Shown: piece by piece, positions 2,401 through 36,545 of the stretch
How positions within the stretch are numbered: position 1 is the stretch's first letter
Layout: each line of letters starts with the position of its first letter
Source: an uncultured virus (IMG/VR IMGVR_UViG_3300021431_000011)
Lineage: Duplodnaviria > Heunggongvirae > Uroviricota > Caudoviricetes
IMG/VR virus record: IMGVR_UViG_3300021431_000011
DNA: 64,000 nucleotides
Strand: one strand, 5' to 3'
The notes under the pieces: generated by a model
Databases searched by the model: none
Seen by the model: the letters and a program-made list of their open reading frames with translations, nothing else
What the model was told of the DNA's origin: nothing
Translations under genes and position numbers: made by a program

Positions 2401-2449
2401 TTAACATTTTAGATCTAAATGAGTTCGCCAATTTTACCGCCTCTTATAT

Positions 2450-2541
2450 GAGAAGAATAGTAAAATAGTAGGTTAAAAGGGAAACCGCTATCACCGGACA
2501 GAATTACGGGTTCGAGCCCCGTCTATTTTACTATTCTTTTT
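2450..2541 (+). ncRNA. tRNA-like RNA without an anticodon loop
   Basis: 16-bp closing helix 2453-2468/2523-2538, D-arm GGTT/AACC, T-arm ACGGG-TTCGAGC-CCCGT, own promoter motif at 2426. Confidence 0.65.
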
Positions 2542-2575
2542 ATTTTTTAACTTCTATAAGAATAGGAGAGTAGAA

Positions 2576-3235
2576 GTGGAATACCTACCATCATTTATAG
2601 ATGATCTTCATATTGATATTAAGCCATCATTTATTGCCCATTCATTTAGAGATGAACATGATGCTAAAATGATGTACGGATTGCCTAAGGTAAAGAAATT
2701 TCCTATGCCTGATGCAAAACATGTACGATCTGCTATTAGGTTTTTTAACTATGCTAAACCATCTCAAGAACAAGAGTTAGCCAATGCTATTCTAGCTCGA
2801 ATGGATGACTATGGTATCGACCCTGATGATATTAATGTCGGTGATGATAATCGTTTTAAGAAATATTTACAGCATTCATATTTAGCACATCATGGCATTA
2901 AAGGAATGCATTGGGGTGTGAGACGCTATCAGAATTCTGATGGCAGTTTGACAAATGCTGGAAAACAACACTATAATACGAGATTGGCAAACAAAGGTGA
3001 CAAACTTCGATCAGAAGGTTACGATCTATCATCCAATAAATTAGCTTTAACTAAAAAAGAAAGAATAGCAAATTCTATAGCAGTAGGTGCAGGAATGGTT
3101 GCTAGTATAATCACTGAAAATCCTATACCACTTATGAGCACACAAGTAGCTATATTAGCGCAACATAAACGCAATCGCAAAGCAGTTTTAGAATCTATAA
3201 AACGTGAACGTAATACCAAAATTAAAGGTTCATAA
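2576..3235 (+). CDS. HHGIKG-tag protein with an extra N-terminal domain
   Basis: MEYLPSFID leader; YGLP..KKFPMPDAKHVRSAIRFFN domain; internal LAHHGIKGMHWGVRR. Confidence 0.8.
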   Translation: MEYLPSFIDDLHIDIKPSFIAHSFRDEHDAKMMYGLPKVKKFPMPDAKHVRSAIRFFNYAKPSQEQELANAILARMDDYGIDPDDINVGDDNRFKKYLQHSYLAHHGIKGMHWGVRRYQNSDGSLTNAGKQHYNTRLANKGDKLRSEGYDLSSNKLALTKKERIANSIAVGAGMVASIITENPIPLMSTQVAILAQHKRNRKAVLESIKRERNTKIKGS

Positions 3236-3329
3236 AAATTTGAAAACTTTTAGATTCATTTTCGCAGAAAAAACTCCTGCTCTTATAGCAAGAGTCCAAA
3301 AGGGACTTAACTATTGAGAGGAGTTGTAT

Positions 3330-3644
3330 ATGAGCGGGACGGCTATTCCAGCATATAACCATGACGATCGAAATCATCAGTTTATCTGGCATGTGTTGGC
3401 TCATAAGCTGACGAAGGAAGACTTCGAGGCAATTCAGTTGGCCCTCATCGAGCGCGAGGACGATCACAAAGCGATTGACAATACGCAGGTGGCGTTCTAT
3501 GAATTCGATAATGGATCTATGATGCAGCCTCGTCCTGTTCCTGAATCTTATAAGGAGAAGGCACATCGCTATGCAGACTGGTCATGCGCAATGGATATAT
3601 GCATGATCATCAGCAAGTATGCGGATTTTTTCTATAGTAAGTAA
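3330..3644 (+). CDS. Hypothetical early protein
   Basis: Promoter motif 3263, GAGGAG RBS, terminator at 3661. Confidence 0.7.
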   Translation: MSGTAIPAYNHDDRNHQFIWHVLAHKLTKEDFEAIQLALIEREDDHKAIDNTQVAFYEFDNGSMMQPRPVPESYKEKAHRYADWSCAMDICMIISKYADFFYSK

Positions 3645-3660
3645 TAAATGGCTTTTGAAA

Positions 3661-3698
3661 AAGGATTGTGAGGTCGAAAGACTTTACAATCCTTTTTT
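3661..3698 (+). terminator. Intrinsic terminator
   Basis: AAGGATTGTGAGGTC-GAAA-GACTTTACAATCCTT plus T-run. Confidence 0.85.
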
Positions 3699-3731
3699 CT
3701 TTTTACCATACTTTATTTTTTAGGAGGAATT

Positions 3732-4472
3732 GTGGAGTATCTTCCCACTTTTAGTGATCAATTAGATGTGGATTATATTTCACATCATGGTATTAAAGGA
3801 ATGCATTGGGGTATTAGAAGATACCAGAATCCTGATGGAACATTAACGGATGCTGGAAGAAAACACTATGCTGTTCGAGAATCTAAAGGTAGTTTTTTAG
3901 ATCTCAATCGAACTTTTATGGATGCCGATTTAAAGAAAGCAAATGAAAAAGGCGGACATGCTAATAGAGATGTCGTTTACAATCAGGCAATTAAAGCCCT
4001 TAAAAACGATCCAAAAATAAAAGCTGCAGAAGATGATTGTAAGAAGTCTGCAAGAGAAGCCTATGCTGCATATGCAGATTTATATAACAAAAAAGCTGCC
4101 GAACAAGGGGTCGATCATCGTCTTGATCCGAAAACTTTTAACTGGTATAAACAAATAAATGAATTAGATTATGATGTAGACATGGCAGTATGGGACGCAC
4201 GTGGAAAAGAAGCTGAAAAATGGTATAATGCACAAGATCGTCATGAGAATAATGTTGATAAATTAATGAATGCTTATGAGCAGGCTGAAAGTCGTTTTAT
4301 TAAGCAATATCATAATGCGGTTTTGACTGATATTCCAAATGACGGATCAAAGCAAGCTGTTAAAAGAATATTGGACCGTTATGGCGAGTTAAACACATTC
4401 GATTTTACTGAATCGCTTGACACAGATGGTCCGGACTATGGTTGGTCTACATATAATTTATTCGATGTTTAA
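3732..4472 (+). CDS. HHGIKG-tag protein, variable C-terminus
   Basis: MEYLPTFSDQLDVDYISHHGIKGMHWGIRRYQN; AGGAGG RBS. Confidence 0.8.
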   Translation: MEYLPTFSDQLDVDYISHHGIKGMHWGIRRYQNPDGTLTDAGRKHYAVRESKGSFLDLNRTFMDADLKKANEKGGHANRDVVYNQAIKALKNDPKIKAAEDDCKKSAREAYAAYADLYNKKAAEQGVDHRLDPKTFNWYKQINELDYDVDMAVWDARGKEAEKWYNAQDRHENNVDKLMNAYEQAESRFIKQYHNAVLTDIPNDGSKQAVKRILDRYGELNTFDFTESLDTDGPDYGWSTYNLFDV

Positions 4473-4601
4473 TAAAAAGAGCACTTATTGTTAACTAAAA
4501 CACTCTTACAAAACCCCAGGTAAACGGCTTGTTAAAAAGCGTTTTTAGAGCTTAAAAATTGACAAACGACTAATTACCCATGAAGTTTGGTGATTTTGAT
4601 T

Positions 4602-4973
4602 ATGTCATATGATAGAGATGGCGATATTTTTAAGCTTCATAATGCAGGAGTCTCGGATATGAAACTTTCAGAGTTTTATAAATTGTCTAAACAACGAATT
4701 TGCCAAATTATTTTTGAGCAACGTCGTAGACATAGAAAAGGTAACCCCGATATTCCACAAATTGATACCATGTGCAGAATTCTTGGTTGGAGAGAAAGCG
4801 ATAGAGGAAAACTCCAATCAATTTTACACAAGAACGGATACACTTCGTATGATGATAAATGGCGAGATTTATCCTCGGATGATATTTTAGCCATACCTTT
4901 GTTGGGGCATTCTGCTATGAGTGTCATATGGCTTGCTCAAAACATGGATGACGAAACGGATTCGACTAAATAG
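4602..4973 (+). CDS. HTH plus RNA polymerase alpha-CTD-like protein
   Basis: N-terminal HTH (LSEFYKLSKQRICQII); C-terminal L.KNGY...DLSSDDILAIPLLG resembles alpha-CTD/HhH. Confidence 0.55.
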   Translation: MSYDRDGDIFKLHNAGVSDMKLSEFYKLSKQRICQIIFEQRRRHRKGNPDIPQIDTMCRILGWRESDRGKLQSILHKNGYTSYDDKWRDLSSDDILAIPLLGHSAMSVIWLAQNMDDETDSTK

Positions 4974-4987
4974 GATTTGGATATTCA

Positions 4988-5173
4988 ATGGTACTTTTAG
5001 TTATTAGCATCTTAATGTCTATCTTTATAGACGCTTCGCTTAAGGTAATTAGTTTTATGAGTGCGTATTCGAGATATACGAGTTCTGCATATTTGAAATT
5101 TATTGGAGCGCAAATTGTTATTAGCATAGTCGAGCTATTTAGTATTGCATTGTTGATAGTTAAGTTAGGATAG
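4988..5173 (+). CDS. Small membrane protein
   Basis: Two hydrophobic segments. Confidence 0.5.
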   Translation: MVLLVISILMSIFIDASLKVISFMSAYSRYTSSAYLKFIGAQIVISIVELFSIALLIVKLG

Positions 5174-5195
5174 TAAAGAGAGGGAGATAAAGATT

Positions 5196-5858
5196 ATGGA
5201 GTATCTTCCGACTTTTATCGATCAATTAGATGTAGATTATATTTCACATCATGGAATTAAAGGAATGCATTGGGGTATAAGAAGGTATCAGAATACTGAT
5301 GGATCGTATACTTCTGCTGGTAAAGCCCGATATAATGCTAATCAATCGAATGGTAAGCGATCTTTTTCGAAATCTAAAGCTGCGAAAATTGCTGCTGGAG
5401 CGGCAATAACAGCGGCAGGTGTTGCTGCCTTAGCATATATGAATAATTCTGATTTGCCAACTATATCTGATAAAATGGCTGAAAAAGCAGTTAGCAATTA
5501 TTGCAAGAGGACTAGAAAAGCTGCTGGAGATTTGTATGACGAAACGGTAGATACTTACAATGCTTGTATAAAGGCTTTTGACGGTGATTGGCCTAGTATA
5601 GATGCGAAAACGTGTAGAGCAAATGCTCGACAAGTTCGAAAAGATGCAAATGATATGTTTCAGGCTCATTCTAAAAGTCGTATACCATTTGTCGATAAAG
5701 CTTGGCGTAATAGTGCAGGAACTTCTCGACGAAGTAAAGCTCGTAATGATATGATTAGAACCGACGAAGCGATTAGCAATTATCGTGATTCTATGCTAGA
5801 CTATGCTGATATTTACGATAGTATGGCTAAAGAATTAGATCGTCGACGTGGAAATTAA
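5196..5858 (+). CDS. HHGIKG-tag protein, variable C-terminus
   Basis: First ~36 codons nearly identical to 3732..4472, then unrelated. Confidence 0.8.
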   Translation: MEYLPTFIDQLDVDYISHHGIKGMHWGIRRYQNTDGSYTSAGKARYNANQSNGKRSFSKSKAAKIAAGAAITAAGVAALAYMNNSDLPTISDKMAEKAVSNYCKRTRKAAGDLYDETVDTYNACIKAFDGDWPSIDAKTCRANARQVRKDANDMFQAHSKSRIPFVDKAWRNSAGTSRRSKARNDMIRTDEAISNYRDSMLDYADIYDSMAKELDRRRGN

Positions 5859-5959
5859 TTTATGATAAATGAATGGGAAAGGTCATGGAGTAATTCGCAT
5901 ATTTTACTTCTTTCTATATAGGATTGACATTATTGTCAAAGACATGAAAGGAGTAGAGT

Positions 5960-6229
5960 ATGGACGACAAGGAGAACTCTGTGGAGAGGGCTTATCGCCT
6001 TATGGAGGAGTGCGACGACACTGTCGAGTTTCTTCGCGGTTGCGAGTTGGATATTCAGGAGCAGATCTCGAAGGCTGAGGAAGAGCTGAAGAAGATCGAT
6101 TCCCATATCCAGAAGCTTCACGAGGAGCTTGAGGAAGTGCGCTCAAGCAAGATGGATGAGCTGTACACCAAGATGGCTCTCCAGATGTTCGTCAGGTCCG
6201 GAGGTGGACTTGACATGATGATCAATTAG
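5960..6229 (+). CDS. Acidic coiled-coil early protein
   Basis: Promoter 5896, GAAAGGAG RBS, G/C-ending codons, terminator at 6237. Confidence 0.75.
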   Translation: MDDKENSVERAYRLMEECDDTVEFLRGCELDIQEQISKAEEELKKIDSHIQKLHEELEEVRSSKMDELYTKMALQMFVRSGGGLDMMIN

Positions 6230-6341
6230 TATATTTGGGGCTGGAGGTCGTAAGATTTCCAGCTCCTTATATTTTTGCCCATCTCGCTAAAATTACCTTT
6301 CTTATTATAGGAAAGGTTGGAAACAAGAGAAAGGCATTATC

Positions 6342-6521
6342 ATGGCTAAGATGAACAAGGTTCAGAAGGTTAGGCTCGTTGCAGAGATCAACCTTCTCAG
6401 AGGAGTTTGTCGCCTTGCTGCAAGGCATTACAAGGCGGAGGGGAATCTGACAAAGGTTAGGCACTGGAACGACCTTGCGTATAAGGGAGATGTTCTTTAC
6501 GGAATAGCCACAATGGCATAA
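6342..6521 (+). CDS. 59-aa early protein (MAKMNKVQKVRLVAEINLL...)
   Basis: Promoter 6285, GAAAGG RBS; below the ORF-track cutoff. Confidence 0.7.
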   Translation: MAKMNKVQKVRLVAEINLLRGVCRLAARHYKAEGNLTKVRHWNDLAYKGDVLYGIATMA

Positions 6522-6676
6522 GGCATAATTGGACAACCGTCCAAAAGAGAAGTTTATGTATAGAAAGTTTATACATGGACTTTCTCTTTTTCGTTATATT
6601 TATCTTCTATAAAAATTTTTGTCTTCGCATATTTTACTGCACATAATATGAGAAAGGAGCAAGAATAGAGGAGATT

Positions 6677-6886
6677 ATGAACAATCTTGGATTATTTGGA
6701 ATAATTGTTGTAGGAACAATGGTCGGGAATCGCATGTGCGATATAGCAGATTATATTTGTAAAAAGCGTAGAAGGGCTAAGGCAGTAGCCGAAGCAAACA
6801 AACGCGGAGGTCAACAATCTGCTCGTATAGAAAGTGATATGTATACTATTGAAGAATTAATTAAAAAGTATGGAGATTTGTTGTAA
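6677..6886 (+). CDS. Small protein with N-terminal hydrophobic segment
   Basis: Promoter 6626, GAGGAG RBS. Confidence 0.7.
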   Translation: MNNLGLFGIIVVGTMVGNRMCDIADYICKKRRRAKAVAEANKRGGQQSARIESDMYTIEELIKKYGDLL

Positions 6887-6997
6887 AAATCTAAATTTGC
6901 TCCTTTCTTTTTTGTCATATTTACCTTTTGTAAAAATTTTTGCCTCGTTAAATTTACCTTTTGTATTATAAGAAGGGCGCTAGAAGGAGCGATAAAA

Positions 6998-7162
6998 ATG
7001 AAAAAGAACAAATGTGAAATTTGTGGTAAGTATAATGGCAAGGTTTTTAAGAGCGACATATTTGGTAAGGTGCATTTGTGTGATAAATGCATTAGAGAAT
7101 ATGGAGGTGTTAAACGAACCATTGAAAGTTACGAGTTGGGCGATGTTATTTTGGTTAAGTAG
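6998..7162 (+). CDS. 54-aa zinc-finger protein
   Basis: MKKNKCEICG...HLCDKC (CxxC...CxxC); AAGGAG RBS; promoter 6946. Confidence 0.7.
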   Translation: MKKNKCEICGKYNGKVFKSDIFGKVHLCDKCIREYGGVKRTIESYELGDVILVK

Positions 7163-7265
7163 CGTAATAAAAGCGCCCTTCTTTTTTACCATTGATTATT
7201 TTTTTTTTACAATTTTTTCGCAGTTTTAACTATTCATATAATGAGGTCAAGAAAAGGAGACTTAA

Positions 7266-7466
7266 ATGAGTAACAAAGGTTGGATCATTATTGGAACAGT
7301 GATTAGTTACATGATTGTTAAGGCGATGACTGATGAGTTGAAACATGAGCGAGAAAAACAAGAAACAATGCTTATTGAAACGACTACGAGATCGTTGACA
7401 AATGCATTCATAAAAGACTTGGAAGATAAAAATAATGTTAGGCCAGAATTGAGACTTGTTAAGTAA
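7266..7466 (+). CDS. Small membrane-anchored protein
   Basis: Promoter 7219, AAGGAG RBS, N-terminal TM. Confidence 0.7.
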   Translation: MSNKGWIIIGTVISYMIVKAMTDELKHEREKQETMLIETTTRSLTNAFIKDLEDKNNVRPELRLVK

Positions 7467-7550
7467 ATTAATGTTCTTAGACCTCAAGTATAGACGCTGC
7501 TTTTACAGGGCGTTTATATTTTTCTTCGCCATAATAACCATTCATATAAT

Positions 7551-7691
7551 GAGGAAGAGGAGTATAAACCCCGGCAGGCTTAGGTGTCTTACCACTGCGC
7601 GGAGCCCTAAGTTAGGTCGGACAAATAGTTCAATGGTAGAACGCCGATCGATAATGACGGAGACTCAGGTTCGAAGCCTGAAACTTCCTTT
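7551..7691 (+). ncRNA. tRNA-like RNA with degenerate anticodon and acceptor arms
   Basis: TA-GTTC-AATGGTA-GAAC D-arm, TCAGG-TTCGAAG-CCTGA T-arm, closing AGGAAG/CTTCCT, promoter 7527. Confidence 0.6.
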
Positions 7692-7761
7692 ATATTTTTG
7701 CCTTCGCTAAAAATACCTTCTTTAATATAAGAAAGGTTGGACCTAGTAGAAAGGTACAAAA

Positions 7762-7938
7762 ATGATGTCAGAGAAGTTTATGAAAGTAACAACGGGTCTG
7801 CTAGTTACGACTATCATCAGCGGATTCGTGGTGAGCAAGTTTGCGCCACGAATTGGCGGTACGATAGCCTTGACGAGCTACATGTTGGCTGGAGCAACGT
7901 CTTTGGCCGGCGCAGTTTGCGCTTTCAAGGAGATCTAG
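7762..7938 (+). CDS. 58-aa two-TM membrane protein
   Basis: MMSEKFMKVTTGLLVTTIISGFVVSKF...; GAAAGG RBS; promoter 7705. Confidence 0.7.
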   Translation: MMSEKFMKVTTGLLVTTIISGFVVSKFAPRIGGTIALTSYMLAGATSLAGAVCAFKEI

Positions 7939-8075
7939 CCAAAAGGAGAAGTCTATGTATAGAAAGTTTATACATGGGCTTTCTCTTTTTCGTTATATTT
8001 ACTTTTTGTAAAAATTTTTGCCTCGTTGAAATTACCTTTCCTTATATAAGAAAGTCACAAACAAAGGAGATCATA

Positions 8076-8336
8076 ATGGCTACAAACTGTATTGTGAATT
8101 GCACGATATTTCGTGGAGCTGAAAAAGAGGTTAGTGAGAATATTGCAGAAAAGATTTTTGACAATTTTATAGACGCTTTCGCTTGGCTAGAGAACTTTTT
8201 AGACGAGCGATACAACGACTTTGAAGTGTCAGAAATCCGTAGAGCAGGTTTTCTTGACGAAACTATAGAACTTTCGAGATGGGATGAAGATCACAATTAT
8301 TGGTATACTGAGCTGTATGAAGTTGAACTTGTATAA
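8076..8336 (+). CDS. Acidic small early protein
   Basis: AAAGGAG RBS before ATG 8076; promoter 8024. Confidence 0.7.
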   Translation: MATNCIVNCTIFRGAEKEVSENIAEKIFDNFIDAFAWLENFLDERYNDFEVSEIRRAGFLDETIELSRWDEDHNYWYTELYEVELV

Positions 8337-8476
8337 GTAATTGAGAGAAGTCGATGTATAGAAAGTTTATACATGGGCTTTCTCTTTTTCGTTATATTTA
8401 CTTTTTGTAAAAATTTTTGCCTCGTTGAAATTACCATTCCTTATATAGGAAAGTAAAACTATTCAGGAGGTACAAA

Positions 8477-8683
8477 ATGAGTTTTTATAGTGTTTATGGC
8501 TATGCAGACAATGACTGTGGATGGACTGAAGATTTCAGCAATCTCGAAGATGCTAAGAATCGTCTTTCGGAGATTATGGCAGAAGACGAGATTACTGATA
8601 TTACAGAGACAGAAGGCGGCGAGAATAGCATAGTGCATTACAAGACAGAAGACGGATACAACTACGGAATTAGTTTGTTCTAA
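8477..8683 (+). CDS. Acidic small early protein
   Basis: AGGAGG RBS; promoter 8423. Confidence 0.7.
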   Translation: MSFYSVYGYADNDCGWTEDFSNLEDAKNRLSEIMAEDEITDITETEGGENSIVHYKTEDGYNYGISLF

Positions 8684-8817
8684 CCAAAAAGAGAGGTCAA
8701 CGTATAGAAAGTTTATACGTGGGCTTTCTCTTTTTCGTTATATTTACTTTTTGTAAAAATTTTTGTCTCGCTAAAAATACTATTCCTTTTACGAAGCTGA
8801 AAAGAAAGGAGAATGTT

Positions 8818-9177
8818 ATGAAATGCATTTATTGGGGAATTTTCGTTCCAAATTCTGGTGGAAAACTCGATAAGGTTGTGATATTTCAACATGTGACATA
8901 CGGTTTCAAAACCGAGTTTCCAGATGAGTTAGAAGGAAAATCGGCCGACGTTAAAGTTGTTGGCTATGGTAACAATGGCCAAAATGAAGCATATTTGGTT
9001 GAATTGCCAACATGGACAAAACAATATTACGGAGGTTCTTCGATTAAACATATAACTCTATCGGTAGCTTATGGGGGAAAACCTGTAGAAAGTCAATATT
9101 TGGATTTTGAACCTATTGACGAATTTGTATTGAACGGAATTTTCGGATATTTTGACGAAACAGGAATTCATCTATAA
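8818..9177 (+). CDS. 2H phosphoesterase family protein
   Basis: Two HxT motifs (QHVTY, KHITL); AAAGGAG RBS; promoter 8769. Confidence 0.7.
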   Translation: MKCIYWGIFVPNSGGKLDKVVIFQHVTYGFKTEFPDELEGKSADVKVVGYGNNGQNEAYLVELPTWTKQYYGGSSIKHITLSVAYGGKPVESQYLDFEPIDEFVLNGIFGYFDETGIHL

Positions 9178-9273
9178 ACAGCTTTATATAGGCCTTGTTA
9201 GAGTTTTAACAAGGCTTTATATTTTTCGCAATTTTAACTCATACTATATAAGATGGGTTAAGATTGGAGATTT

Positions 9274-9564
9274 ATGAAATACGAAATAAAAATTGCATGG
9301 TATTTATCAAAAAATTTACCAGTAATCGAACAAACTATTGGGTTTTGCAATAACAAAAAGAAAGCTTATAGATTGATTGTTGGTATAGCAAAAACGATTG
9401 CTAAGTATCAAACAATTGATTACAACTGTATAGAATTAAAAAATTGTAAACGAGGTGGTATATTTGGAAAGATTGCTATTATTGAACACTTAGATAAAAT
9501 GCAAAGAAAGTATGGTCCGTTTTACACCCACCCATTAGTATTGGGAAAACCCAAAAACTTTTAG
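9274..9564 (+). CDS. Basic hypothetical protein
   Basis: Promoter 9227, GGAG RBS. Confidence 0.6.
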   Translation: MKYEIKIAWYLSKNLPVIEQTIGFCNNKKKAYRLIVGIAKTIAKYQTIDYNCIELKNCKRGGIFGKIAIIEHLDKMQRKYGPFYTHPLVLGKPKNF

Positions 9565-9613
9565 CAAGTTGATATTTAACTTGCTTTTAGTTTTTTACGT
9601 TAGGAGATGTGTT

Positions 9614-9790
9614 ATGATAGATGAACAGAAAAAACTTAAAAAGATTCTCAATGATATTCAAGAAAAACTTACTCATTATCCTTCTATAGTGGATGAAGAT
9701 CCAAACCAAGATAAATATTATTTAGAGATTTTACCATTAACAAAATCTGAAATGCAAGCGTTAGAAAAACTTATATCTTTGCAATTTTAA
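9614..9790 (+). CDS. Hypothetical protein
   Basis: AGGAG RBS before ATG 9614. Confidence 0.55.
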   Translation: MIDEQKKLKKILNDIQEKLTHYPSIVDEDPNQDKYYLEILPLTKSEMQALEKLISLQF

Positions 9791-9811
9791 CTTGCGCTTA
9801 TATAGGAATCT

Positions 9812-10231
9812 TGTAGCGGACCTAGGTGGTATGAGGGAGACTAGGCAAAGAGGAATCGACAAAGGTCGAGCAGTTGATCTCATAGAAAGAAAAGAATTCG
9901 ATGGTATCAAAATTAATATCGTAACCGAAGCGAATGTATTCTGGATGATTCTTGAGCATGGAGAAGGATTGCCTATGCCAATACATATTCAGTAGTCTGT
10001 TCCGAGTATAGACGCCGCTTTTATAGGGCGTTTATATTTTTGCCTCGCCAAAATTACTGCATATATTTTAGAAAGGGAGAGAAACTAAGAGATCGTAGAG
10101 CCATTGCTGGTGAAAACCCAGCCATCTATGCGAACGGCCACCTGTAGTCAGCATAGACTCGTCCCTTTTACTGTAGTGGACCTAGGTGGTATGAGGGAGA
10201 CTAGGCAAAGAGGAATCGACAAAGGTCGAGC
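9812..10231 (+). repeat. 60-nt structured direct repeat (9812-9871, 10172-10231)
   Basis: 59/60 identity; hairpins CCTAG/CTAGG and TCGAC-AAAG-GTCGA. Confidence 0.9.
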
Positions 10232-10398
10232 GGTAAATCCGTGGGAAAAACAGGTATTTATTTTTTTCTCGCAAAAATTACGTTTCATATAATGAGATGG
10301 AGTAGAGTAAGAATGTAGCAGGTAAACAGTGCTTGTTATATTTTTATTGCTGCTCAAAATTTTTATGGCCAAAAGTGCCAAGAGAGGAGTTTTGTGGT

Positions 10399-10743
10399 AT
10401 GAAGCTATCAAAAGAGATTATGGATAAACTTCGTGATGCTTGGAAAGATCAAGGCGAGCTTTATCCGTGGACGACCTGTGCAGAGGTTCTTACAGGTATC
10501 ATGGTCATGGAAGGTGAGGAGCAAGATAAGGTCTCTGCGACCGATAAGAAATCGGCCAAGCCGATCTATAAAACTTATGAAGACCTTGCTTATATTTCAG
10601 CAATGGAAGCAACTCGCTGTCATATGTTGATCGATAAGCTTAAGGCCACTATCGATCTTCTTGATGCTCAACAGCAGTACTATGAAGCTATAAGTGCCAT
10701 TGAGCGTGATAATGAGTCGTTCGGATTTGATCTAGATATTTAA
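10399..10743 (+). CDS. Hypothetical protein
   Basis: GAGGAG RBS; terminator ~10755-10795. Confidence 0.7.
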   Translation: MKLSKEIMDKLRDAWKDQGELYPWTTCAEVLTGIMVMEGEEQDKVSATDKKSAKPIYKTYEDLAYISAMEATRCHMLIDKLKATIDLLDAQQQYYEAISAIERDNESFGFDLDI

Positions 10744-10813
10744 ATGTAATAAGAATATGAGAGGTGCTAATAGAATAAGCATCTCTCATATTTTTTACTG
10801 AAAGGTTTGTGCA

Positions 10814-11086
10814 ATGAGTAAAACATGGCTAAGCGAAGACGATATTGACCCATTTGATCAAGCAGCGGTGCGTGCTTACTTGCTAGACATTGAGCGAGAA
10901 TACAACAAAAAACGAGAACAACTCTATTATAAAACTCAATCATATTTTCATCAATCTATATCCAGCGATTACACTAAAGAAGAAGATCTTCATGAAATCA
11001 TTAATGAGTGTGAACGATTGAAGCAGCAACATAGAGATTTTAAAAAATTTGTATCCGATATTAGAGGAACTAAATACATTATTTAA
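10814..11086 (+). CDS. Hypothetical protein
   Basis: GAAAGG RBS. Confidence 0.65.
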   Translation: MSKTWLSEDDIDPFDQAAVRAYLLDIEREYNKKREQLYYKTQSYFHQSISSDYTKEEDLHEIINECERLKQQHRDFKKFVSDIRGTKYII

Positions 11087-11112
11087 ATAATCAAGATTAG
11101 AAAGGATCAATA

Positions 11113-11415
11113 ATGCTTGAAATACATGTTATATTTCCGGAGCAGAAAGATGCTTATGTAGCAAATACTAGAGTGTGCGAATTTTTTCAAGGTTCGTTAG
11201 CATTTATTGATAATAATATTGTCGTAACACCTGTTGTGTCAGAATACATAGGCGATCGTAAAACATGGGCGTTTGATATTTGCTTTTCCGATAAAGGCAC
11301 GGACCATAGACTTGTTATTACTGGCGGCGAGCTTCTTCTACAAAACGGCACGAGTAATGTATGGGCATTTAGTAAAGTGGACAATTATGTCAATCGAAAA
11401 GATAGCACGGAATAA
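11113..11415 (+). CDS. Hypothetical protein
   Basis: GAAAGGA RBS. Confidence 0.65.
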   Translation: MLEIHVIFPEQKDAYVANTRVCEFFQGSLAFIDNNIVVTPVVSEYIGDRKTWAFDICFSDKGTDHRLVITGGELLLQNGTSNVWAFSKVDNYVNRKDSTE

Positions 11416-11773
11416 AGAAATTTTGGCGAAACATCGAGCCGGATTGTCATATTCTGACTTAGCGAATGAATACGAAATTAGCATACCTAGAGTTCGACAA
11501 ATACTTCAAAAAGAACGAGCATATGGATTATCTAAGCCAAGCATGATATTTGAAATTAAACAATCATGCGAAGATTTTAATGCTGCAGATGGTATGCTTT
11601 TCAGAATTCTAAATGCTCTACATAACGAACGTATTGATATTCACGGCAGATGGCTAAAACTATCCAGAGAGGAGATGTTGTCAATACGAGGAATAGGTCA
11701 GCAAGCCGTTGATATTTTAATGCATGCACAAGAGATTGCAAAAAAAGTGAAAGGTGATGTACGACATGGGTAA
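11387..11773 (+). CDS. HTH plus RNA polymerase alpha-CTD-like protein
   Basis: RNKEI..GLSYSDLANEYEISIPRVRQIL HTH; RILNAL...LSREEMLSIRGIG alpha-CTD/HhH pattern; paralog of 4602..4973. Confidence 0.65.
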   Translation: MSIEKIARNKEILAKHRAGLSYSDLANEYEISIPRVRQILQKERAYGLSKPSMIFEIKQSCEDFNAADGMLFRILNALHNERIDIHGRWLKLSREEMLSIRGIGQQAVDILMHAQEIAKKVKGDVRHG

Positions 11774-12017
11774 GATTCGATTTTTTATTAAAGGTATGCA
11801 CACGACTTTTGATCTAGTTCTCATAGCAACGATATGGGCCCTTTCTGAAAAGAATACTCGTCTCGAAAATGAAATAAAAGATTTGACAAAGCAGAATCCT
11901 CGTTCGCCATATTGTTTTAAAAAGCAGTCAGCAACCAAATCTGTACCGAAAGAACAAGCTAAGTATCCTATCGGTTTTGCGTCAGTTCTTGATATTTTCG
12001 AGGATAATAATGATTGA
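11766..12017 (+). CDS. Hypothetical protein
   Basis: AAGGTG RBS, coupled to the upstream gene. Confidence 0.55.
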   Translation: MGKIRFFIKGMHTTFDLVLIATIWALSEKNTRLENEIKDLTKQNPRSPYCFKKQSATKSVPKEQAKYPIGFASVLDIFEDNND

Positions 12018-12300
12018 TGCACGTGATTATTCTACATCGGAAGAACTCAAAGAAGCAATGAAACGCGAATACAGAGCGCAGATTTTAGAAATCATGATGT
12101 CTGAATTGCGATCTTTAAATGCTGATATTTCCCAAATGCAAAGCTTGACCAACTATCCTTTTGTTAATGAAGTAGCGAATCTTAAACGTAATGATATTTA
12201 TTGGAAAGTAGATCGCATTCAAGAATTAGCAAAAAGAGTTGCTTATACAGCATCATCAATGAAAAACGTCTGTCGACTTATACCAGGAGATGATATTTAA
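12010..12300 (+). CDS. Hypothetical protein
   Basis: GAGG RBS, overlapping operon. Confidence 0.55.
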   Translation: MIDARDYSTSEELKEAMKREYRAQILEIMMSELRSLNADISQMQSLTNYPFVNEVANLKRNDIYWKVDRIQELAKRVAYTASSMKNVCRLIPGDDI

Positions 12301-12590
12301 TGAGGATGCCCGATTATCCGCATACTTCTGTGAAGCCTGAGGTTAGAGCTGCAATATTGGATGAGCCAGAAAAAAGATTAGATTTTTTAAAAAGTCAGGT
12401 GGCCTTTCTAGAAGAGAATCTGACGGATGATGAAAAATCCGACAAACTTATTGCAGCAAAGTTGGAAGCGTTGACGCAAAAAATTTCTCAGTTAGAAAAT
12501 TTAGTAAATCAAATGAATGACGCTTGCGAAAAAGGTGAGAAAGAAGTCATTGCATTACTTAACACTTTTGAGCCTATTAAACGCGATTGA
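12300..12590 (+). CDS. Coiled-coil hypothetical protein
   Basis: TAATG coupling, AGGAG RBS. Confidence 0.6.
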   Translation: MRMPDYPHTSVKPEVRAAILDEPEKRLDFLKSQVAFLEENLTDDEKSDKLIAAKLEALTQKISQLENLVNQMNDACEKGEKEVIALLNTFEPIKRD

Positions 12591-12649
12591 TATTCTCGCA
12601 ATTTTTACGTTTTGTATAATAGGTTAGGTAGGCATAGATTGAAAAGGAG

Positions 12650-12886
12650 ATGATTGCTATGCCGAGTGGAATCAAGATCGCAAAATTTGTTGGCGGCGTT
12701 ATTGAAGTCTGTTTTCTGATATCCTTCGTGTATGAAGTTGGTAGGGAAGCTGGACGAAAAGAGCAGGTGGAAGAAGCTGCTCAGCAAGTTCAGGAGAATA
12801 CGCTGAACATGGAGGATTTCATCAAGATGTTGAAGAACGTCGACAAGAATGTGGTCGACAAAGCTCGTTTGACGGTTGTCGGGTAA
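12650..12886 (+). CDS. Membrane-anchored small protein
   Basis: Promoter 12597, AAGGAG RBS, terminator ~12910. Confidence 0.7.
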   Translation: MIAMPSGIKIAKFVGGVIEVCFLISFVYEVGREAGRKEQVEEAAQQVQENTLNMEDFIKMLKNVDKNVVDKARLTVVG

Positions 12887-12966
12887 ATCAAGCCGCCGGA
12901 CCTATGGGGAAGGATCTGTAGAAATACAGGTCCTTCTTTTTTATTTTTTAAAGGAGAATTTTCAAC

Positions 12967-13332
12967 ATGCTTATTCCGCTAAAACTTTATGGATTTTTGT
13001 CAAATTTGCATGATGCTGTAATTGACGTGAAAAATGACAGTAAAACCAAAGCAGGAACAGTCATCGAATACATTATCGATAATCCAGATAAAGTAATTCT
13101 TGGAATTGGTACAGTAGCTAGTCTTTTGAGAGCTAGTCAAAGTCTTGTTGTAAGTCATCGAAATTATTCACAACGCAAGTATGCAGAACGGTCATATTAT
13201 GATCCGCATACGCATACTAAGTGGATGCTTCGCAGACAACTTACTAATTACGAAAAGAAATCGCTTAATCAACGAGTCAGCAATGGAGAAACTGCCGTTG
13301 ATATTTTAGAAGAAATGGGGGTACTTAAATGA
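12967..13332 (+). CDS. Conserved-type phage hypothetical protein
   Basis: AAGGAG RBS; YDP....W.LRR.LTN.E motif. Confidence 0.65.
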   Translation: MLIPLKLYGFLSNLHDAVIDVKNDSKTKAGTVIEYIIDNPDKVILGIGTVASLLRASQSLVVSHRNYSQRKYAERSYYDPHTHTKWMLRRQLTNYEKKSLNQRVSNGETAVDILEEMGVLK

Positions 13333-13673
13333 CAGAACAAACAGAGCCATTGGCAAACAAGTCTCAAAACGTTGTCTATTTATATTTATGTGACGGGAAA
13401 GCTTGTTCCGAAGAAGATAAAAAGTGTTGCTGGACATTAAATTTACCGCCCGATTTAACATGCAGACATACGACAAATGAAGAGCATTCATTAGCTAAAA
13501 AACTTAGAGGTTTAATTCCAACAAAATTCGATCCATTTTCAGAAAACAAGCATATTTTGGTCGAGCACTTTGATTATAAGTATGCAAAGAAAGATGCTTT
13601 AGAAAAATTTCTGAATTCTCTACCAAAAAAGAAAGACACTGGTGAATCAAATAATGACGAAGAACAAGAATAA
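13329..13673 (+). CDS. Cys/His-containing hypothetical protein
   Basis: YLCDGKAC...CRHTT...H motif. Confidence 0.6.
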   Translation: MTEQTEPLANKSQNVVYLYLCDGKACSEEDKKCCWTLNLPPDLTCRHTTNEEHSLAKKLRGLIPTKFDPFSENKHILVEHFDYKYAKKDALEKFLNSLPKKKDTGESNNDEEQE

Positions 13674-14139
13674 CCCATTTTATCAGGCATGTATTGATGC
13701 GTGCATCAAACTTGATAAGAAAAAGGGACTTGGAACTTACGCTTATAACATTTTAGATGATAATGGTATAGTTGAGCATATTCTTAACGGAACTTTGAAT
13801 TTGGATGATTATACCGATAGAGATTTGGAATCCTTTCGCGGATTGAGTTTTACCACTATCGAAATACTTCGCGTAGCATGGAATTTATATACGAAAAAGC
13901 CTTTGCAAAAAACATTGGATTTAGATCCAGCAATGCTGCGAGGATATTCTACTGGTAAAGATCTTATTCGATGGATTAAAGACCATAAGCTTGAGCACAA
14001 ACGAGTATATTATGCGCATCATGATTGTGTCGGTTTTGTAATAGAAACGCGCGAATTCGAGGGCATGGAGTATGACACCACTGCGGATCTAAATGTTATT
14101 AATGGCGATTATGTAGAAGTTCAGGAGCATATTTCATGA
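13654..14139 (+). CDS. Protein with an alpha-CTD-like N-terminal domain
   Basis: YAYNIL..NGI...YTDRDLESFRGLS..TIEIL. Confidence 0.5.
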   Translation: MTKNKNNPFYQACIDACIKLDKKKGLGTYAYNILDDNGIVEHILNGTLNLDDYTDRDLESFRGLSFTTIEILRVAWNLYTKKPLQKTLDLDPAMLRGYSTGKDLIRWIKDHKLEHKRVYYAHHDCVGFVIETREFEGMEYDTTADLNVINGDYVEVQEHIS

Positions 14140-14330
14140 GTGGACAAAATATTTATGCCATGTTCTGCAAAGTACTTGGTGGAGTGAAAAACGATGTTCG
14201 AATGTTTAAAACCTGCGGAGATCGGTCTATTATATTATACCTAACAAATGGTGAACTTCCGTTATTGTTTACAGTAGTCGATAGTCAAAAAGAGATTTGG
14301 ACATTAGAGCCTGTAATTAATACCAAATGA
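14136..14330 (+). CDS. Hypothetical protein
   Basis: ATGA coupling, AGGAG RBS. Confidence 0.6.
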   Translation: MSGQNIYAMFCKVLGGVKNDVRMFKTCGDRSIILYLTNGELPLLFTVVDSQKEIWTLEPVINTK

Positions 14331-14351
14331 TATTTTGAAAGAGGTTGCATA

Positions 14352-14843
14352 ATGAGTTTTAGTTTTTTAAACGGACTTGATTTAAATAATGGTAGAATTT
14401 TTATTATTATGGTCGGACCACCTGGAGCAGGGAAGACAACTGTGTCTAAGAAACTTGTAGATGATTACGGTTTTGTTCGAATTTGCCCGGATGATATTCG
14501 AGAGGAAATTACTGGTAACGCCAGTAATCAGGATCGTAACGAAGAGGTGTTCACCAAAGTTTATTCGAGACTTAGCGAATACCTGAATCAAGGCTTTAAT
14601 GTAGTTTATGATGCTACAAATTGTAGATCTGCATATCGTTTTAAAGTTCTTGATATTGCTCGAAAATCAGCTAATACGATAGTTTGTATGGTATCAACTA
14701 CTCCTATTAGCGATTGTTTGGAGCGTAATAAAAATCGCTATGAGCGTCATGTTCCAGAAGAAGTAATTGAGCGAATGTATTTTACACTTAAAAAGCATCC
14801 GCCAACGATTTTTGAAGGGTATGATTTAATTGTCGGTTTCTAA
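14352..14843 (+). CDS. P-loop kinase (polynucleotide kinase/AAA_33 type)
   Basis: GPPGAGKT, DDIR, DATN, C..RN..R..VP.EVI. Confidence 0.85.
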   Translation: MSFSFLNGLDLNNGRIFIIMVGPPGAGKTTVSKKLVDDYGFVRICPDDIREEITGNASNQDRNEEVFTKVYSRLSEYLNQGFNVVYDATNCRSAYRFKVLDIARKSANTIVCMVSTTPISDCLERNKNRYERHVPEEVIERMYFTLKKHPPTIFEGYDLIVGF

Positions 14844-15195
14844 TAAAGAGCATGATTCATGCTCTTCAGAATTATATTCGAATTTGGATAAAATTAGACA
14901 TTTAATTTCAGAACCAGCTCTATATGAGCAGATGGCAGAAGAATGTTCCGAGCTTAGTCAAGTACTTTTGAAAAAAGCTCGTAAATTGCGAAATGAAAAC
15001 TATACGCCAAAATCATATTCTGAAATTAATGACAATTTAATTGAAGAATACACGGATGTTAGACTTTGTGCAATGGTGCTTTCCTTATCAATTGATGAGA
15101 CAATTCTCTCTGAAAAACTAAATCGATGGATATTTCGAAATAGTGATATAGGAAAGAATCTTATGGCGAATGGAGAATCGTATGAAAATTCTTGA
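14830..15195 (+). CDS. MazG-like nucleotide pyrophosphohydrolase
   Basis: EECSEL...EEYTDV acidic motifs. Confidence 0.7.
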   Translation: MSVSNKEHDSCSSELYSNLDKIRHLISEPALYEQMAEECSELSQVLLKKARKLRNENYTPKSYSEINDNLIEEYTDVRLCAMVLSLSIDETILSEKLNRWIFRNSDIGKNLMANGESYENS

Positions 15196-15826
15196 CGCTT
15201 CTTACAAAATTGTGCGTCTTCAAAAAGAAATTGATGTAGATCAGATAAGCGATGCATATTGTATGTGCTACGAAACACCGCATCCCACATCATATGAAAA
15301 GCAATGTGATATCATTAGAAATCACAGAAAACATGGATCACCGCTTGAGCATTCTATTATGACCGTTGACTTCGTAATCAATCGTGGAATTAGTCATGAA
15401 TTGGTTCGCCATAGGCATACTGGATATTCTCAGCAGTCTACTCGCTATTGCAATTTTAGTAAAAACAAATTCGGCAATAGTGTAAGTTTCATTAAAGATT
15501 CCAGAATTTCAATCGATAATGCGGCACTATACGATCTATGGGTTCGTGGATTGCAAGCGGATGAAGACGAATATTTTGCTCGTTTGAACATGGGACAAAC
15601 ACCAGAGGAAGCACGAGGTTGTCTGCCGAATGATCTGGCAACACGACTGAAAGTATCGACTAATTTCCGTGAATGGCATGATATTTTCACTTTGCGTTGT
15701 GATACTCATGCTCATTATCAAATGCGAGAGATTATGAGGCCTTTATGCGAAGAGATGATTCGTGAGCTTCCTTGCATTTTTGATGACATTCATCCCGAGT
15801 TGGATTTTGTGGTGCTCGATGATTAA
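15182..15826 (+). CDS. thyX: FAD-dependent thymidylate synthase
   Basis: HGSPLEH and SHELVRHR-x7-S-TRY motifs, EARG.LP. Confidence 0.95.
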   Translation: MKILDASYKIVRLQKEIDVDQISDAYCMCYETPHPTSYEKQCDIIRNHRKHGSPLEHSIMTVDFVINRGISHELVRHRHTGYSQQSTRYCNFSKNKFGNSVSFIKDSRISIDNAALYDLWVRGLQADEDEYFARLNMGQTPEEARGCLPNDLATRLKVSTNFREWHDIFTLRCDTHAHYQMREIMRPLCEEMIRELPCIFDDIHPELDFVVLDD

Positions 15827-16043
15827 TAACTGGGAATTTCGGCAAGAGATTAAGCGTAATGCTTTGAAAAGAATTGTTCAAGATGGGAATTCTTTACAAT
15901 CATTAATTGGTGTTTTAGATTTACAACTTAGTACTGATCAAAAAGATGACGCTGTCGAAACGCTCTCATTTATAGAAACAATATTAACTCAAACGGATGC
16001 TGATTGTAGATCGTTGGATGCAGCATTGGATTACGAACAGTAA
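15819..16043 (+). CDS. Hypothetical protein
   Basis: Overlaps the thyX stop, operon-like. Confidence 0.5.
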   Translation: MINNWEFRQEIKRNALKRIVQDGNSLQSLIGVLDLQLSTDQKDDAVETLSFIETILTQTDADCRSLDAALDYEQ

Positions 16044-16056
16044 GGAATTATATTTT

Positions 16057-16380
16057 ATGGCTCAGCAGAAAGCATTTAAAGATCCTCGTCAAATGTCTGG
16101 AGAAAAGGAAGCAATTGATATTGTTTATAAATGGTATAAAAGTCAACATAGAAAAATTGATCGCGATTCAATCTATGTTGTATGGTTTGCTTTTGTCGGC
16201 TATAGCGGATTTAAATGCATGATTACATCGCATGATTATAAAGATTATTTCTTTGAGATTACCATGAATAAGCGAACGGGTGAAATGCGATGCGACTGCT
16301 TTAAGCGCTTTGAATATATTGTAAAACCCGCTGACCATGATAAGCGTGAATCCGATTCTAATGATATTTCGCTTATATAA
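16057..16380 (+). CDS. DUF6275-like phage protein (second copy)
   Basis: IYVVWF...FKCMI...YFFEIT.N...E...D.FKR. Confidence 0.6.
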   Translation: MAQQKAFKDPRQMSGEKEAIDIVYKWYKSQHRKIDRDSIYVVWFAFVGYSGFKCMITSHDYKDYFFEITMNKRTGEMRCDCFKRFEYIVKPADHDKRESDSNDISLI

Positions 16381-16444
16381 CTCTCGCAGAATTAACTCGC
16401 ACTATAATAGGTAGGTATTACAAATACGTTTGAAAGGCGATGCA

Positions 16445-16618
16445 ATGAACGTTAGTGTTGTGTGCGAGTATCTGATTGACTCCATAATGATACTTGTCGG
16501 CATGGGTGTGCTGGTGCACATCTATGCAGAACAACGATATCAGGAAGGGATTGAAAAGGGAATGCGCATGCAGCGGAAGATTGATCGCGCTGCTAGACGC
16601 GGAGAGTTTTATCGGTAG
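16445..16618 (+). CDS. Small membrane protein
   Basis: Promoter 16385, GAAAGG RBS, terminator 16621-16657. Confidence 0.65.
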   Translation: MNVSVVCEYLIDSIMILVGMGVLVHIYAEQRYQEGIEKGMRMQRKIDRAARRGEFYR

Positions 16619-16696
16619 ATAAGAGGGGATCTATAGAAAATTATAGATCCCCTCTTTCATGTTTTTGCATGCTCTTCTTTAGAAAGGATTTCAGGC

Positions 16697-17446
16697 ATGA
16701 GTGGCACAATCAACGATGCGATTGTTGGCGCAGTTGTTGGAAATATTCTCGGAACTGATAGATGGCTAATTGGTCGTGATGAATCTAAAGAAACTTTAAA
16801 CGATGATATTCAAATGTATATAGAAAAATCGATGACGCTAAATGCTATGTCTAAAATCATTCGATCAATGAAACACTATGATGGTTTTTGCATTGATGAT
16901 ATTTCTTCAAAAATCAAAACGATCGACGGTCTGTGTAGTGGTAGCGAAAATTGCTATGTTACTCCCAATGATGGATCGGTTTTATGTTGGATTTATTTAG
17001 CCGCTTTTTCTGATATTTTCGTCGAGCATGATTATTCTTTAGATTTCACAATTAGTAGTATTTGTAAAGTCACACATGCCGATGATGACACTATAAATCT
17101 CTGCATCGAATATTGTCATCTTATTCATGATATTTTCTGTAATCATATGAATCAGGAAGGAATTCTACAAGTTCTTCCAGAACTTGATATTCTTGCTGGA
17201 GATGTTCCAATATATCGAGATGCAAAGTCAACGTTTTTCGCTGGACTTTGGGCATTTGTTCATGCAACGAATTACGAAAATGCTTTGTATAATTGTGCCG
17301 AACTTGATCATGGCCGAGGTTTTACAAATTGGATTCCAACAGTTGCTGGAACACTTGCTGGTTTATATTTCGGATCCGATTCAATTCCACAGTATCTTAT
17401 GAAGGATTTCAAAATCGATGACTATTTGAATAGCTTGACTTTTTAA
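16697..17446 (+). CDS. ADP-ribosylglycohydrolase-fold protein (degenerate active site)
   Basis: GAVVGNILG, NDDIQM, ND GSV, VTH, VAGTLAGLYFGSDSIP. Confidence 0.75.
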   Translation: MSGTINDAIVGAVVGNILGTDRWLIGRDESKETLNDDIQMYIEKSMTLNAMSKIIRSMKHYDGFCIDDISSKIKTIDGLCSGSENCYVTPNDGSVLCWIYLAAFSDIFVEHDYSLDFTISSICKVTHADDDTINLCIEYCHLIHDIFCNHMNQEGILQVLPELDILAGDVPIYRDAKSTFFAGLWAFVHATNYENALYNCAELDHGRGFTNWIPTVAGTLAGLYFGSDSIPQYLMKDFKIDDYLNSLTF

Positions 17447-17459
17447 GAGGCGAATTTTT

Positions 17460-17723: not shown

Positions 17724-17746
17724 TATTTTTATAGAAAGGCTAATAA

Positions 17747-18484: not shown

Positions 18485-18515
18485 TTAAATTCTTTACAGA
18501 AAAGAGCGTGATATT

Positions 18516-36502: not shown

Positions 36503-36545
36503 TTTTTTCAAGAAAGCTTTAAAACTATCGAAAGGAGGTGAGTAT

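Follow-up and report, generated by a model that had tools for sequence, protein, structure and literature searches.

Several kinds of RNA resemble transfer RNA (tRNA) without decoding, among them transfer-messenger RNA (tmRNA), Y RNA-like RNAs, the tRNA-like 3' ends of viral RNAs and the t-elements of plant mitochondria; YrlA, T4 species 1 and T5 RNA1 are non-decoding RNAs that contain a tRNA-like module. Here we describe a tRNA-shaped element at positions 2453–2538 (+ strand) of IMG/VR record IMGVR_UViG_3300021431_000011, a 64,000-nucleotide (nt) stretch of uncultured phage DNA (38% G+C) which we call the window. On the comparative sequence evidence given below, the element is a maintained, conserved, non-decoding tRNA mimic, not a dead tRNA. 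As judged by model alignment, the nearest described RNA is the pneumococcal small RNA (sRNA) F41. In Streptococcus pneumoniae TIGR4, F41 is reported as a 103-nt sRNA validated by northern blotting, and its deletion attenuated infection (PMC3395615). It pulled down RNase Z and Cbf1, the latter of which is described as trimming the F41 3' end (PMC7196914), and it was listed in 4 of 385 strains (PMC12323649), so that it appears to belong to accessory DNA. Plant mitochondrial t-elements are presented as non-decoding tRNA-like structures at messenger RNA (mRNA) ends and were proposed to serve as RNase P/RNase Z signals (Forner et al. 2007, PMC1920247). RNase P is reported to cut phage RNAs and mRNAs with tRNA-like features (PMC11143913). 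Finally, the PeSL cassettes of T4-type phages are described as repeated modules of early promoter and terminator that separate the small early genes of a variable region (Arbiol et al. 2010, PMC2839356).

Anatomy, folding and start motif of the element

The element lies in a 175-nt gap between an open reading frame (ORF) of 95 amino acids (2113–2400) and a DUF7211 gene (2576–3235), both on the + strand. All parts of the tRNA-like design could be read directly from the sequence, and they are listed here with their flanking features and the source of each assignment.

2425–2451, +: promoter-like motif TCGY-N5-WWAC-N6-TWWWWT-RR (27 nt), with box TTATAT at 2444–2449; putative promoter
2450–2452, +: GAG, putative first transcribed bases at the presumed start site, extending the helix by G.U, A-U and G.U
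2453–2468, +: closing helix, 5' strand, with 16 of 16 Watson-Crick pairs to 2523–2538; acceptor-stem 5' strand at 2462–2468 (Rfam tRNA alignment)
2469–2470, +: TA at tRNA positions 8–9 (Rfam tRNA alignment)
2471–2486, +: D arm GGTT / AAAAGGGA / AACC, stem 2471–2474 with 2483–2486, 8-nt loop with GG (sequence, Rfam alignment)
2487, +: position 26, G (A in variants) (sequence, variants)
2488–2501, +: 14-nt hairpin CTATC / ACCG / GACAG instead of a 17-nt anticodon arm, with a central A.C mismatch and loop 2493–2496 (sequence)
2502–2505, +: variable loop AATT; 2504 T>A in variants (Rfam tRNA alignment)
2506–2522, +: T arm ACGGG / TTCGAGC / CCCGT, stem of 5 base pairs (bp) (sequence, Rfam tRNA alignment)
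2523–2538, +: closing helix, 3' strand; acceptor 3' strand at 2523–2529, discriminator A2530 paired, CCA absent (sequence)
2539–2548, +: T-run TTTATTTTTT, putative termination tract (sequence)
2564–2578, +: ribosome-binding site AGGAGAG and GTG start of the DUF7211 gene (ORF and Pfam scans)

In a local Rfam scan of 301 nt, the tRNA family (RF00005) matched positions 2462–2530 with 41.8 bits and an E value of 8e-8; the gathering score is 29. Beyond the acceptor stem, the discriminator and trailer of the element pair with the leader for 9 more bp, and the resulting closing helix, which is A-U rich, encloses 54 nt and is followed immediately by the T-run. An earlier reading of this DNA, made from the letters only (the sequence-only reading), had described a tRNA geometry with acceptor stem, TA, D arm and T arm, a 14-nt arm in the place of the anticodon arm, and an acceptor extended into a 16-bp helix that ends in a U-tract without CCA. 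Every one of these parts was found at the place it had given, and the Infernal/Rfam check that it proposed yielded a tRNA match above the cut-off. Its view that this is not a decoding tRNA was borne out as well: decoding requires a 7-nt anticodon loop with U33 and an anticodon at positions 34–36, the loop here is the 4-nt ACCG, and ARAGORN, run on the window, neither called the element nor found a tmRNA. When the whole 64-kb window was scanned, the element was lost by the Rfam fast filters.

The predicted fold energy of the element was −31.6 kcal/mol (z = −3.4), a value that none of 200 shuffles equalled, and the minimum-energy fold consisted of the long closing helix with 21 pairs, G.U included. 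As a control we examined the five real tRNAs of the window. These have at most one leader-trailer pair, versus 14 contiguous extra pairs (with G.U) in the element; in every one of the five the acceptor stem is rich in G+C and the end is ACCA or ACCT, and the element core is 43–49% identical to the phage's own tRNAs (32/74, 38/82, 32/73 and 37/75). A covariance model built from three variants of the element (R1), run with filters off, found no second copy in the window; its other window matches were the five tRNAs (18–28 bits), plain terminator hairpins and the palindromic reverse strand. At the element, a terminator scan of the window flagged only the T-arm hairpin and tail. We also considered a target-site duplication, as the word AAGAATAG occurs at 2453 and again at 2558; it was set aside, there being no second copy in the related contig G004, and the word matches the usual purine-rich leader.

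The motif upstream of the element was matched 15 times in the window versus 0.04 times expected. Fourteen of the copies are on the + strand, from 2425 to 19344, with that of the element leftmost, and the remaining copy is at 48432–48458 (−). Most of the + strand copies examined stand just 5' of genes, and a purine-rich start follows the box in every copy. The copy at 2425–2451 directly abuts the closing helix. The motif is likewise found directly 5' of the element in five related contigs introduced below (G004, G006, G010, G011 and G015), and in every lineage examined the closing helix begins 0–3 nt past the TATAAT-like box. We infer that the 27-nt motif is a promoter with its start right after the box, possibly one used by the phage's own polymerase. 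The window encodes a single-chain RNA polymerase of 920 amino acids (PHROG family phrog_4291, 43268–46030) with an HTH_23 match near its N-terminus and sigma-70 region-4-like helix-turn-helix (HTH) matches at its C-terminus, an arrangement that fits a promoter-reading single-chain RNA polymerase; the motif may be the promoter of this enzyme. Homologues are labelled 'RNA-dependent RNA polymerase' in some GenBank phage records and HTH DNA-binding protein in most. The motif is kept 5' of the tRNA-like unit (motif, element and T-run) in phages whose RNA polymerases are only 48–53% identical.

Relatives and compensatory change

Three IMG/VR contigs carry close copies of the element. The G003 copy has the same sequence as that of the window; in the G002 copy the changes fall in the D-loop, at position 26 and in the variable loop; and in the G004 copy they affect the D arm, position 26, one base of the T stem (A-U to G.U) and one of the T-loop. 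All three keep the 32 bases of the helix and the 14-nt hairpin unchanged. Contigs from two other studies gave the same picture: run X5 is identical over 2450–2545, and run X6 has changes of the G002 type, all at unpaired positions, its D-arm variation being confined to the loop (2481 G>T and an inserted A). The hairpin is thus the same in all three sequence variants and in the X5 and X6 contigs. In both runs, window positions 2894–3258, inside the gene at 2576–3235 and just beyond it, are replaced by 36–38 nt. Identity between the window and G004 is 82/87 in the element, 578/651 in the next gene (84/100 at its third codon positions) and 23/40 in the upstream 40 nt. The order in G004 is a strong terminator, the motif, the element, a T-run, a second motif and an unrelated small gene, and the G004 gene homologous to the one downstream of the element in the window is served by a plain hairpin terminator and a box of its own; this arrangement indicates that the unit moves as a cassette and needs no particular mRNA. 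ARAGORN labelled the G002 copy 'tRNA-???' with a 2-nt anticodon. Pattern scans of IMG/VR recovered only the three close relatives, three of the four matches in one such scan being due to chance; a scan of JGI metagenomes with a 22-base-specified pattern gave 0 matches, and GenBank phages gave no match to the region, to the window element or to the element of G006.

More distant relatives were recovered with covariance models. Searched over 30 contigs that encode a related RNA polymerase, R1 recovered G002 and G006 (46.8 bits; the G006 polymerase is 53% identical). A second model, R2, recovered G010 (31.8 bits) and G015 (26.2 bits) and, over 40 further records, G011 (32.9 bits). In the G006 unit, which also has the motif, the helix is perfect over 12 bp, the D and T arms are normal, and the remaining arm combines an A.A mismatch with the 7-nt loop AAACAAT; position 33 of this loop is A, and ARAGORN labels the unit 'Cys ACA'. 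In both G010 and G011, which have the motif too, the helix comprises 10 bp, two of them G.U, the D stem measures 5 bp, and GCAA caps an arm of 6 bp. A match in G005 (L074:9938–10059) proved to be a ribosome-binding site and gene start, not a relative. One further stretch, in G049, corresponds to L113 4034–4146 on the minus strand of a phage contig of ~90 kb binned in a Bacillota metagenome-assembled genome (MAG); a T-run and a start motif come after it, and possibly it represents a relative of the unit that has diverged or is decaying.

In G006 and G010 the replication module starts with a DUF6353 gene, and the unit stands immediately 5' of that gene. The DUF6353 genes of the window are at 31093 and 33623; its unit is a further 28.6 kb upstream, where a long block of small early genes has its first motif copy. 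We fetched 80 DUF6353-linked loci, each with up to 1.5 kb of flank, and searched them with R2 under default filters at E values up to 0.05. There were 11 matches in 11 of the 80 loci, all upstream of the gene and on its strand; the other 69 had no R2 match within the flank, where the filters may miss some. In all 11 units a 5' strand rich in purines is matched by a pyrimidine 3' strand, after which most have a T-run, and the motif is visible in 9 of the 9 loci with enough flank, L164 and L170 starting too near the locus end. ARAGORN called 5 of the 11 'tRNA-???' and gave 5 an isotype with the anticodon at position 33 or 35; 1 was uncalled. The shared design (motif, purine 5' strand, tRNA body, short capped hairpin, pyrimidine 3' strand and T-run) is found in the window, G002, G004, G006 (with its 7-nt loop), G010, G011 and these 11 further loci. 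The carriers are uncultured phages of gut or rumen that are related to one another and have an RNA polymerase gene of their own. The DNA runs in which parts of the region occur are, by their records, gut metagenomes of bovine, goat and sheep origin, and related polymerase genes lie on contigs binned with one MAG each of Bacillota, Butyrivibrio and Lachnospiraceae. No RNA run was among those listed for the region, and the single library with a metatranscriptomic label (X20, probably DNA) had no coverage of the element, a negative that carries no information on expression. In the Lachnospiraceae MAG contig G051:C130, the 29 kb adjoining the RNA polymerase gene held only ordinary tRNA-Thr genes, and for Streptomyces phage Scap1, a cultured relative by its RNA polymerase, the annotation, used here without a model scan, had no tRNA in the 23 kb viewed.

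Base pairing was maintained across these lineages while the bases themselves changed. The closing helix has 16 bp in the window, G002 and G004, 12 perfect bp in G006, and 10 bp in G010 and G011. Among the three good lineages, 5–6 of the inner 10 helix pairs and 1–3 of the 5 T-stem pairs are changed on both sides and 0 are broken. In a model-fitted alignment, 12 of 30 pairs showed compensatory change, which 0 of 500 shuffles reached; all of these changes come from the single comparison with G006. RNAalifold, applied to a model-free MAFFT alignment of 15 sequences, gave 19 pairs (10 in the helix, 4 in the D stem and 5 in the T stem), of which 15 have compensatory change; L195 (long insert), L170 (identical to L164 in the R2 match), G015 and G049 were left out of this set. 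The stretch between the D and T arms is 19–24 nt long and folds alone as a hairpin with a 3–5-nt loop in 11 of the 15 rows, with loops among the family of GCAA, TATC, GTAA, TAT, TTCG, GAATA, TATAT, TGCC and GCGA; the G006 arm alone forms 4 bp with a 5-nt loop, and three rows of the window clade have no independent fold. Note that the G.U pairs in the G004 T stem, in the G010 and G011 helices and in the G011 D and T stems are valid on the + strand only and would be mismatches on the other, so that the structure is read as an RNA made from the + strand. The relatives thus showed compensatory changes and not the neutral decay that the sequence-only reading had named as evidence against it, and for the main lineages these changes lead us to reject a drifting pseudogene.

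A proposed stand-alone RNA and its alternatives

The element is most likely made as a short, self-terminating, stand-alone RNA, in a scheme whose transcription, start, stop, stability and partner are all deduced from sequence. A phage-type promoter would fire just past its TATAAT-like box, and an RNA of ~90–95 nt would begin with the purine-rich 5' strand of the long helix, fold into a tRNA body that keeps the D-loop/T-loop elbow with a small capped hairpin in the place of the anticodon arm, and close with the pyrimidine 3' strand and a U-run that would stop transcription. As both ends would be locked in the helix there would be no free acceptor end and, with no anticodon either, the RNA would neither be charged nor read codons. 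The conserved parts are those that tRNA-shape readers such as RNase Z, RNase P and modification enzymes would recognise, and we propose that the RNA would act through such a partner, binding or occupying it early in infection. The sequence-only reading had suggested an elbow-only decoy, for instance for tRNA-targeting defence nucleases or RNase P, a role for or against which the comparative evidence does not tell. We put the probability of a stand-alone RNA that acts through tRNA-shape readers at somewhat better than even, roughly 0.55. The bracketing of the G004 unit, the constant start motif and the usual T-run together favour a stand-alone short RNA over a pure leader signal. Within this proposal we consider a more specific form with the odds well against it: that the sealed, CCA-less mimic, made from the first early promoter, is a sponge for a host tRNA-processing enzyme, with RNase Z as the leading candidate. 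The five tRNAs of the phage carry ACCA or ACCT ends and so would be spared by an RNase Z sponge. If true, the sponge would occupy the enzyme that matures host CCA-less tRNA precursors and would be a new kind of RNA-based host shut-off or counter-defence.

A number of observations weigh against a stand-alone mimic. The cloverleaf inside the helix is missing from the minimum-energy fold of the element, and the 14-nt hairpin of the window alone, at 0.0 kcal/mol, is thermodynamically marginal and has no independent fold. The sequence-only reading had called the element promoter-driven; the phage-specific repeat directly upstream (15 copies versus 0.04 expected) agrees with this, but a scan of the window for the sigma-70 consensus found nothing at the element. 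R2 is unspecific, scoring ordinary bacterial tRNAs at up to 44.7 bits in three whole MAGs, and its weaker matches (26–33 bits) were therefore accepted on motif, position and the reading of the arm. G015 keeps the motif and outer helix with degraded acceptor and T stems (Rfam tRNA, 19.1 bits), and the G049 candidate (G049:C117 44034–44146) is irregular: it has a bulge of 2 nt and an arm of 39 nt, its z is −1.1, and upstream of it the motif is missing. No element was found with filters off in G005, the closest complete genome outside the clade (80 kb, CheckV completeness 100), or with default filters in G008, so the element is dispensable in some relatives. Lastly, the window, G002, G003, G006, G010 and G015 have no second full motif between the element and the next gene, which fits a role in cis.

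Such a role is the foremost alternative and a real possibility, although clearly the lesser one: the unit might be a leader signal, that is, a promoter-proximal terminator or insulator, or a cut mark for RNase P or RNase Z, which sets the ends of the downstream mRNA or read-through into it. Plant mitochondrial t-elements are said to serve as cis-signals for RNase Z and/or RNase P (PMC1920247), and phage and mRNA substrates are cut by RNase P (PMC11143913). The unit always has a start motif on one side and the next gene or unit on the other, usually with a T-rich run behind it, a position that agrees with this role, as do the six genomes without a second motif, the simple hairpin and T-run terminators in equivalent gaps of the window and 5' of the homologous gene in G004, and the retention of the outer helix and T-run in G015 and G049, where the tRNA body is degraded. 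In G004, however, the unit stands between an upstream terminator and a fresh downstream motif, which leaves no mRNA dependent on it; D-loop GG, T-loop and capped third arm are superfluous in a terminator, yet all are kept across lineages; and the pairing of leader with trailer runs unbroken across the points where RNase P and RNase Z cut, which should hinder both enzymes. Decay of a tRNA gene, in which a once-decoding tRNA lost three bases of its anticodon loop and now drifts, would account for an arm exactly 3 nt below normal, for the 7-nt loop kept in G006, for the degraded look of G015 and for the lack of an element in G005. We judge it unlikely, since in three diverged lineages every stem other than the replaced arm pairs perfectly, with compensatory changes, the replaced arm has been re-capped in many independent ways that include GNRA and UNCG loops, variation falls at unpaired positions, the leader-trailer seal is not found in real tRNAs, and a core 43–49% identical to the phage's own tRNAs is no recent copy of them.

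The remaining explanations fare worse. The sequence-only reading had also suggested a Y-RNA-like partner, and a long terminal helix joined to a tRNA-like module does loosely resemble bacterial YrlA RNAs; the free-end stem of YrlA, though, corresponds to the anticodon stem and not to the acceptor stem. No Y RNA-like family was among the 11 Rfam matches with E up to 10, the perfect helix lacks a bulged protein-binding site, and a TROVE/Rsr domain was not seen in the 55 window ORFs, a part of the total, that were scanned against Pfam; the suggestion found no support, and we think it very improbable that the element partners a Ro/Rsr-type protein or is another tethering RNA. Equally hard to credit is an unusual working tRNA, or an amino-acid carrier for non-ribosomal use, that is freed by RNase P/RNase Z and given CCA. 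It would explain why the Rfam tRNA cut-off is passed, and encoded CCA is missing from many Bacillota tRNA genes; a 4-nt loop, however, leaves no anticodon, the capped loops vary freely between lineages, and the A-U rich acceptor stem has no G3:U70, long variable arm or G-1, so that by the known identity rules the element carries no anticodon-independent synthetase mark. An element acting as DNA, be it as a cruciform, as an origin or as an attachment site that arose from a tRNA gene, could use the long inverted repeat, and phage attachment sites often carry tRNA fragments. We likewise give it very little weight: each G.U pair would turn into an A.C mismatch on the opposite strand or in DNA, both tRNA halves are present and not a 3' fragment, no integrase domain was seen in the ORFs scanned, and iteron-like tandem repeats lie elsewhere, at 46.4–47.1 kb.

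Genome context and comparison with described RNAs

Outside the element, the window encodes a primase-polymerase (36495–40484), a large terminase, portal and head genes, and five tRNA genes at 20.8–24.8 kb. Two of the latter are identical copies of tRNA-Arg(UCU) (23693–23768 and 24709–24784), and each of the five has a TATATTT or TTTAAT box directly before it and an ACC(A/T)-T-rich tail after it, as if it were a small unit of its own. The gene downstream of the element belongs to a set of seven paralogues that share an HHGIKGMHWG-type motif (starts at 235, 2576, 3732, 5196, 29816, 49117 and 50089) and are spread over the early and structural regions; six match DUF7211 and the seventh (29816) was found by a repeat search. 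A 163-amino-acid P-loop kinase at 14352–14843 (Pfam AAA_33, KTI12 and Zeta_toxin-like) has the kind of domain found in RNA-repair polynucleotide kinases; an RNA ligase was not seen among the ORFs scanned. ThyX is encoded at 15170–15826, and an ADP-ribosylglycohydrolase-like tail lies in 16697–17446. In the non-coding gap past the RNA polymerase gene there are two sets of three tandem iteron-like repeats (46440–46609 and 46802–47070, with ~63- and ~96-nt spacing), which could be a replication origin or packaging region.

Our literature search on F41/SpF41, tRNA-like phage RNAs and RNase P found no description of this phage unit family. A survey of structured phage RNAs gives tRNA-like candidates, none of which could be linked to the family (PMC10690425). 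A paper on AcrIIIA1, considered as a precedent, concerns protein-bound host tRNA fragments and not a phage tRNA mimic (PMC11662646). Metagenomic tRNA counts for phages are affected, as tRNA finders and the Rfam fast filters miss these units or mislabel them ('???', Cys-ACA, Tyr-ATA).

The element shares with canonical tRNA (RF00005) the acceptor, D and T arms, U8-A9, the D-loop GG, the T-loop and a 4-nt variable loop. It differs in having a 4-nt loop in place of the 7-nt anticodon loop, no CCA, a paired discriminator and trailer, and an A-U-rich acceptor. The t-elements and PeSL cassettes offer, in our view, only partial analogies, the former for a role in cis and the latter for the cassette-like context. 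As described, t-elements sit inside longer transcripts, whereas the phage unit has its own start motif and T-run and in G004 is unattached to any mRNA. The window is PeSL-like in having 14 + strand motif copies over 2.4–19.3 kb with hairpin terminators between them, and the neighbours of the unit differ between the window and G004; the PeSL stem-loop, however, is described as a plain terminator, while the hairpin loop of the phage unit is a whole tRNA body. Separately from the element, window positions 6547–8800 hold five copies of a ~110-nt repeat (66–100% identity to the reference copy), each overlapping a start motif and lying between small genes, and these are also reminiscent of T4-type PeSL cassettes.

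Apart from tRNA, the only Rfam family that aligned with the element end to end was SpF41_sRNA (RF02435), over model positions 1–105. The scores were 29.8 bits for the window, 28.7 for G002, 26.5 for G004 and 25.4 for G006 versus a cut-off of 52, so far below it that the element is not a member of the family. The SpF41 consensus resembles the element in its closing helix, a UAG..GG D-like region, a 14-nt hairpin region (3 + 8 + 3), a GGUUCGAAUCC T arm and a U-rich tail; unlike the element, F41 has a bulged helix and a further 21-nt stretch before its U-run. F41 is also a bacterial chromosomal sRNA and not part of a phage early unit, and the passages that deal with it do not describe it as a tRNA mimic. 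Set against the known look-alikes, what this gut and rumen phage lineage appears to keep is a compact, separately started version with the anticodon capped off and both ends sealed, a design that would retain only the features recognised by enzymes that read tRNA shape. Should the RNA turn out to be stable and to have a partner, it would reveal how the shape of a tRNA by itself lets phages engage or jam the RNA-processing or defence machinery of the host, and it would also suggest a function for the unexplained pneumococcal F41, which it resembles.

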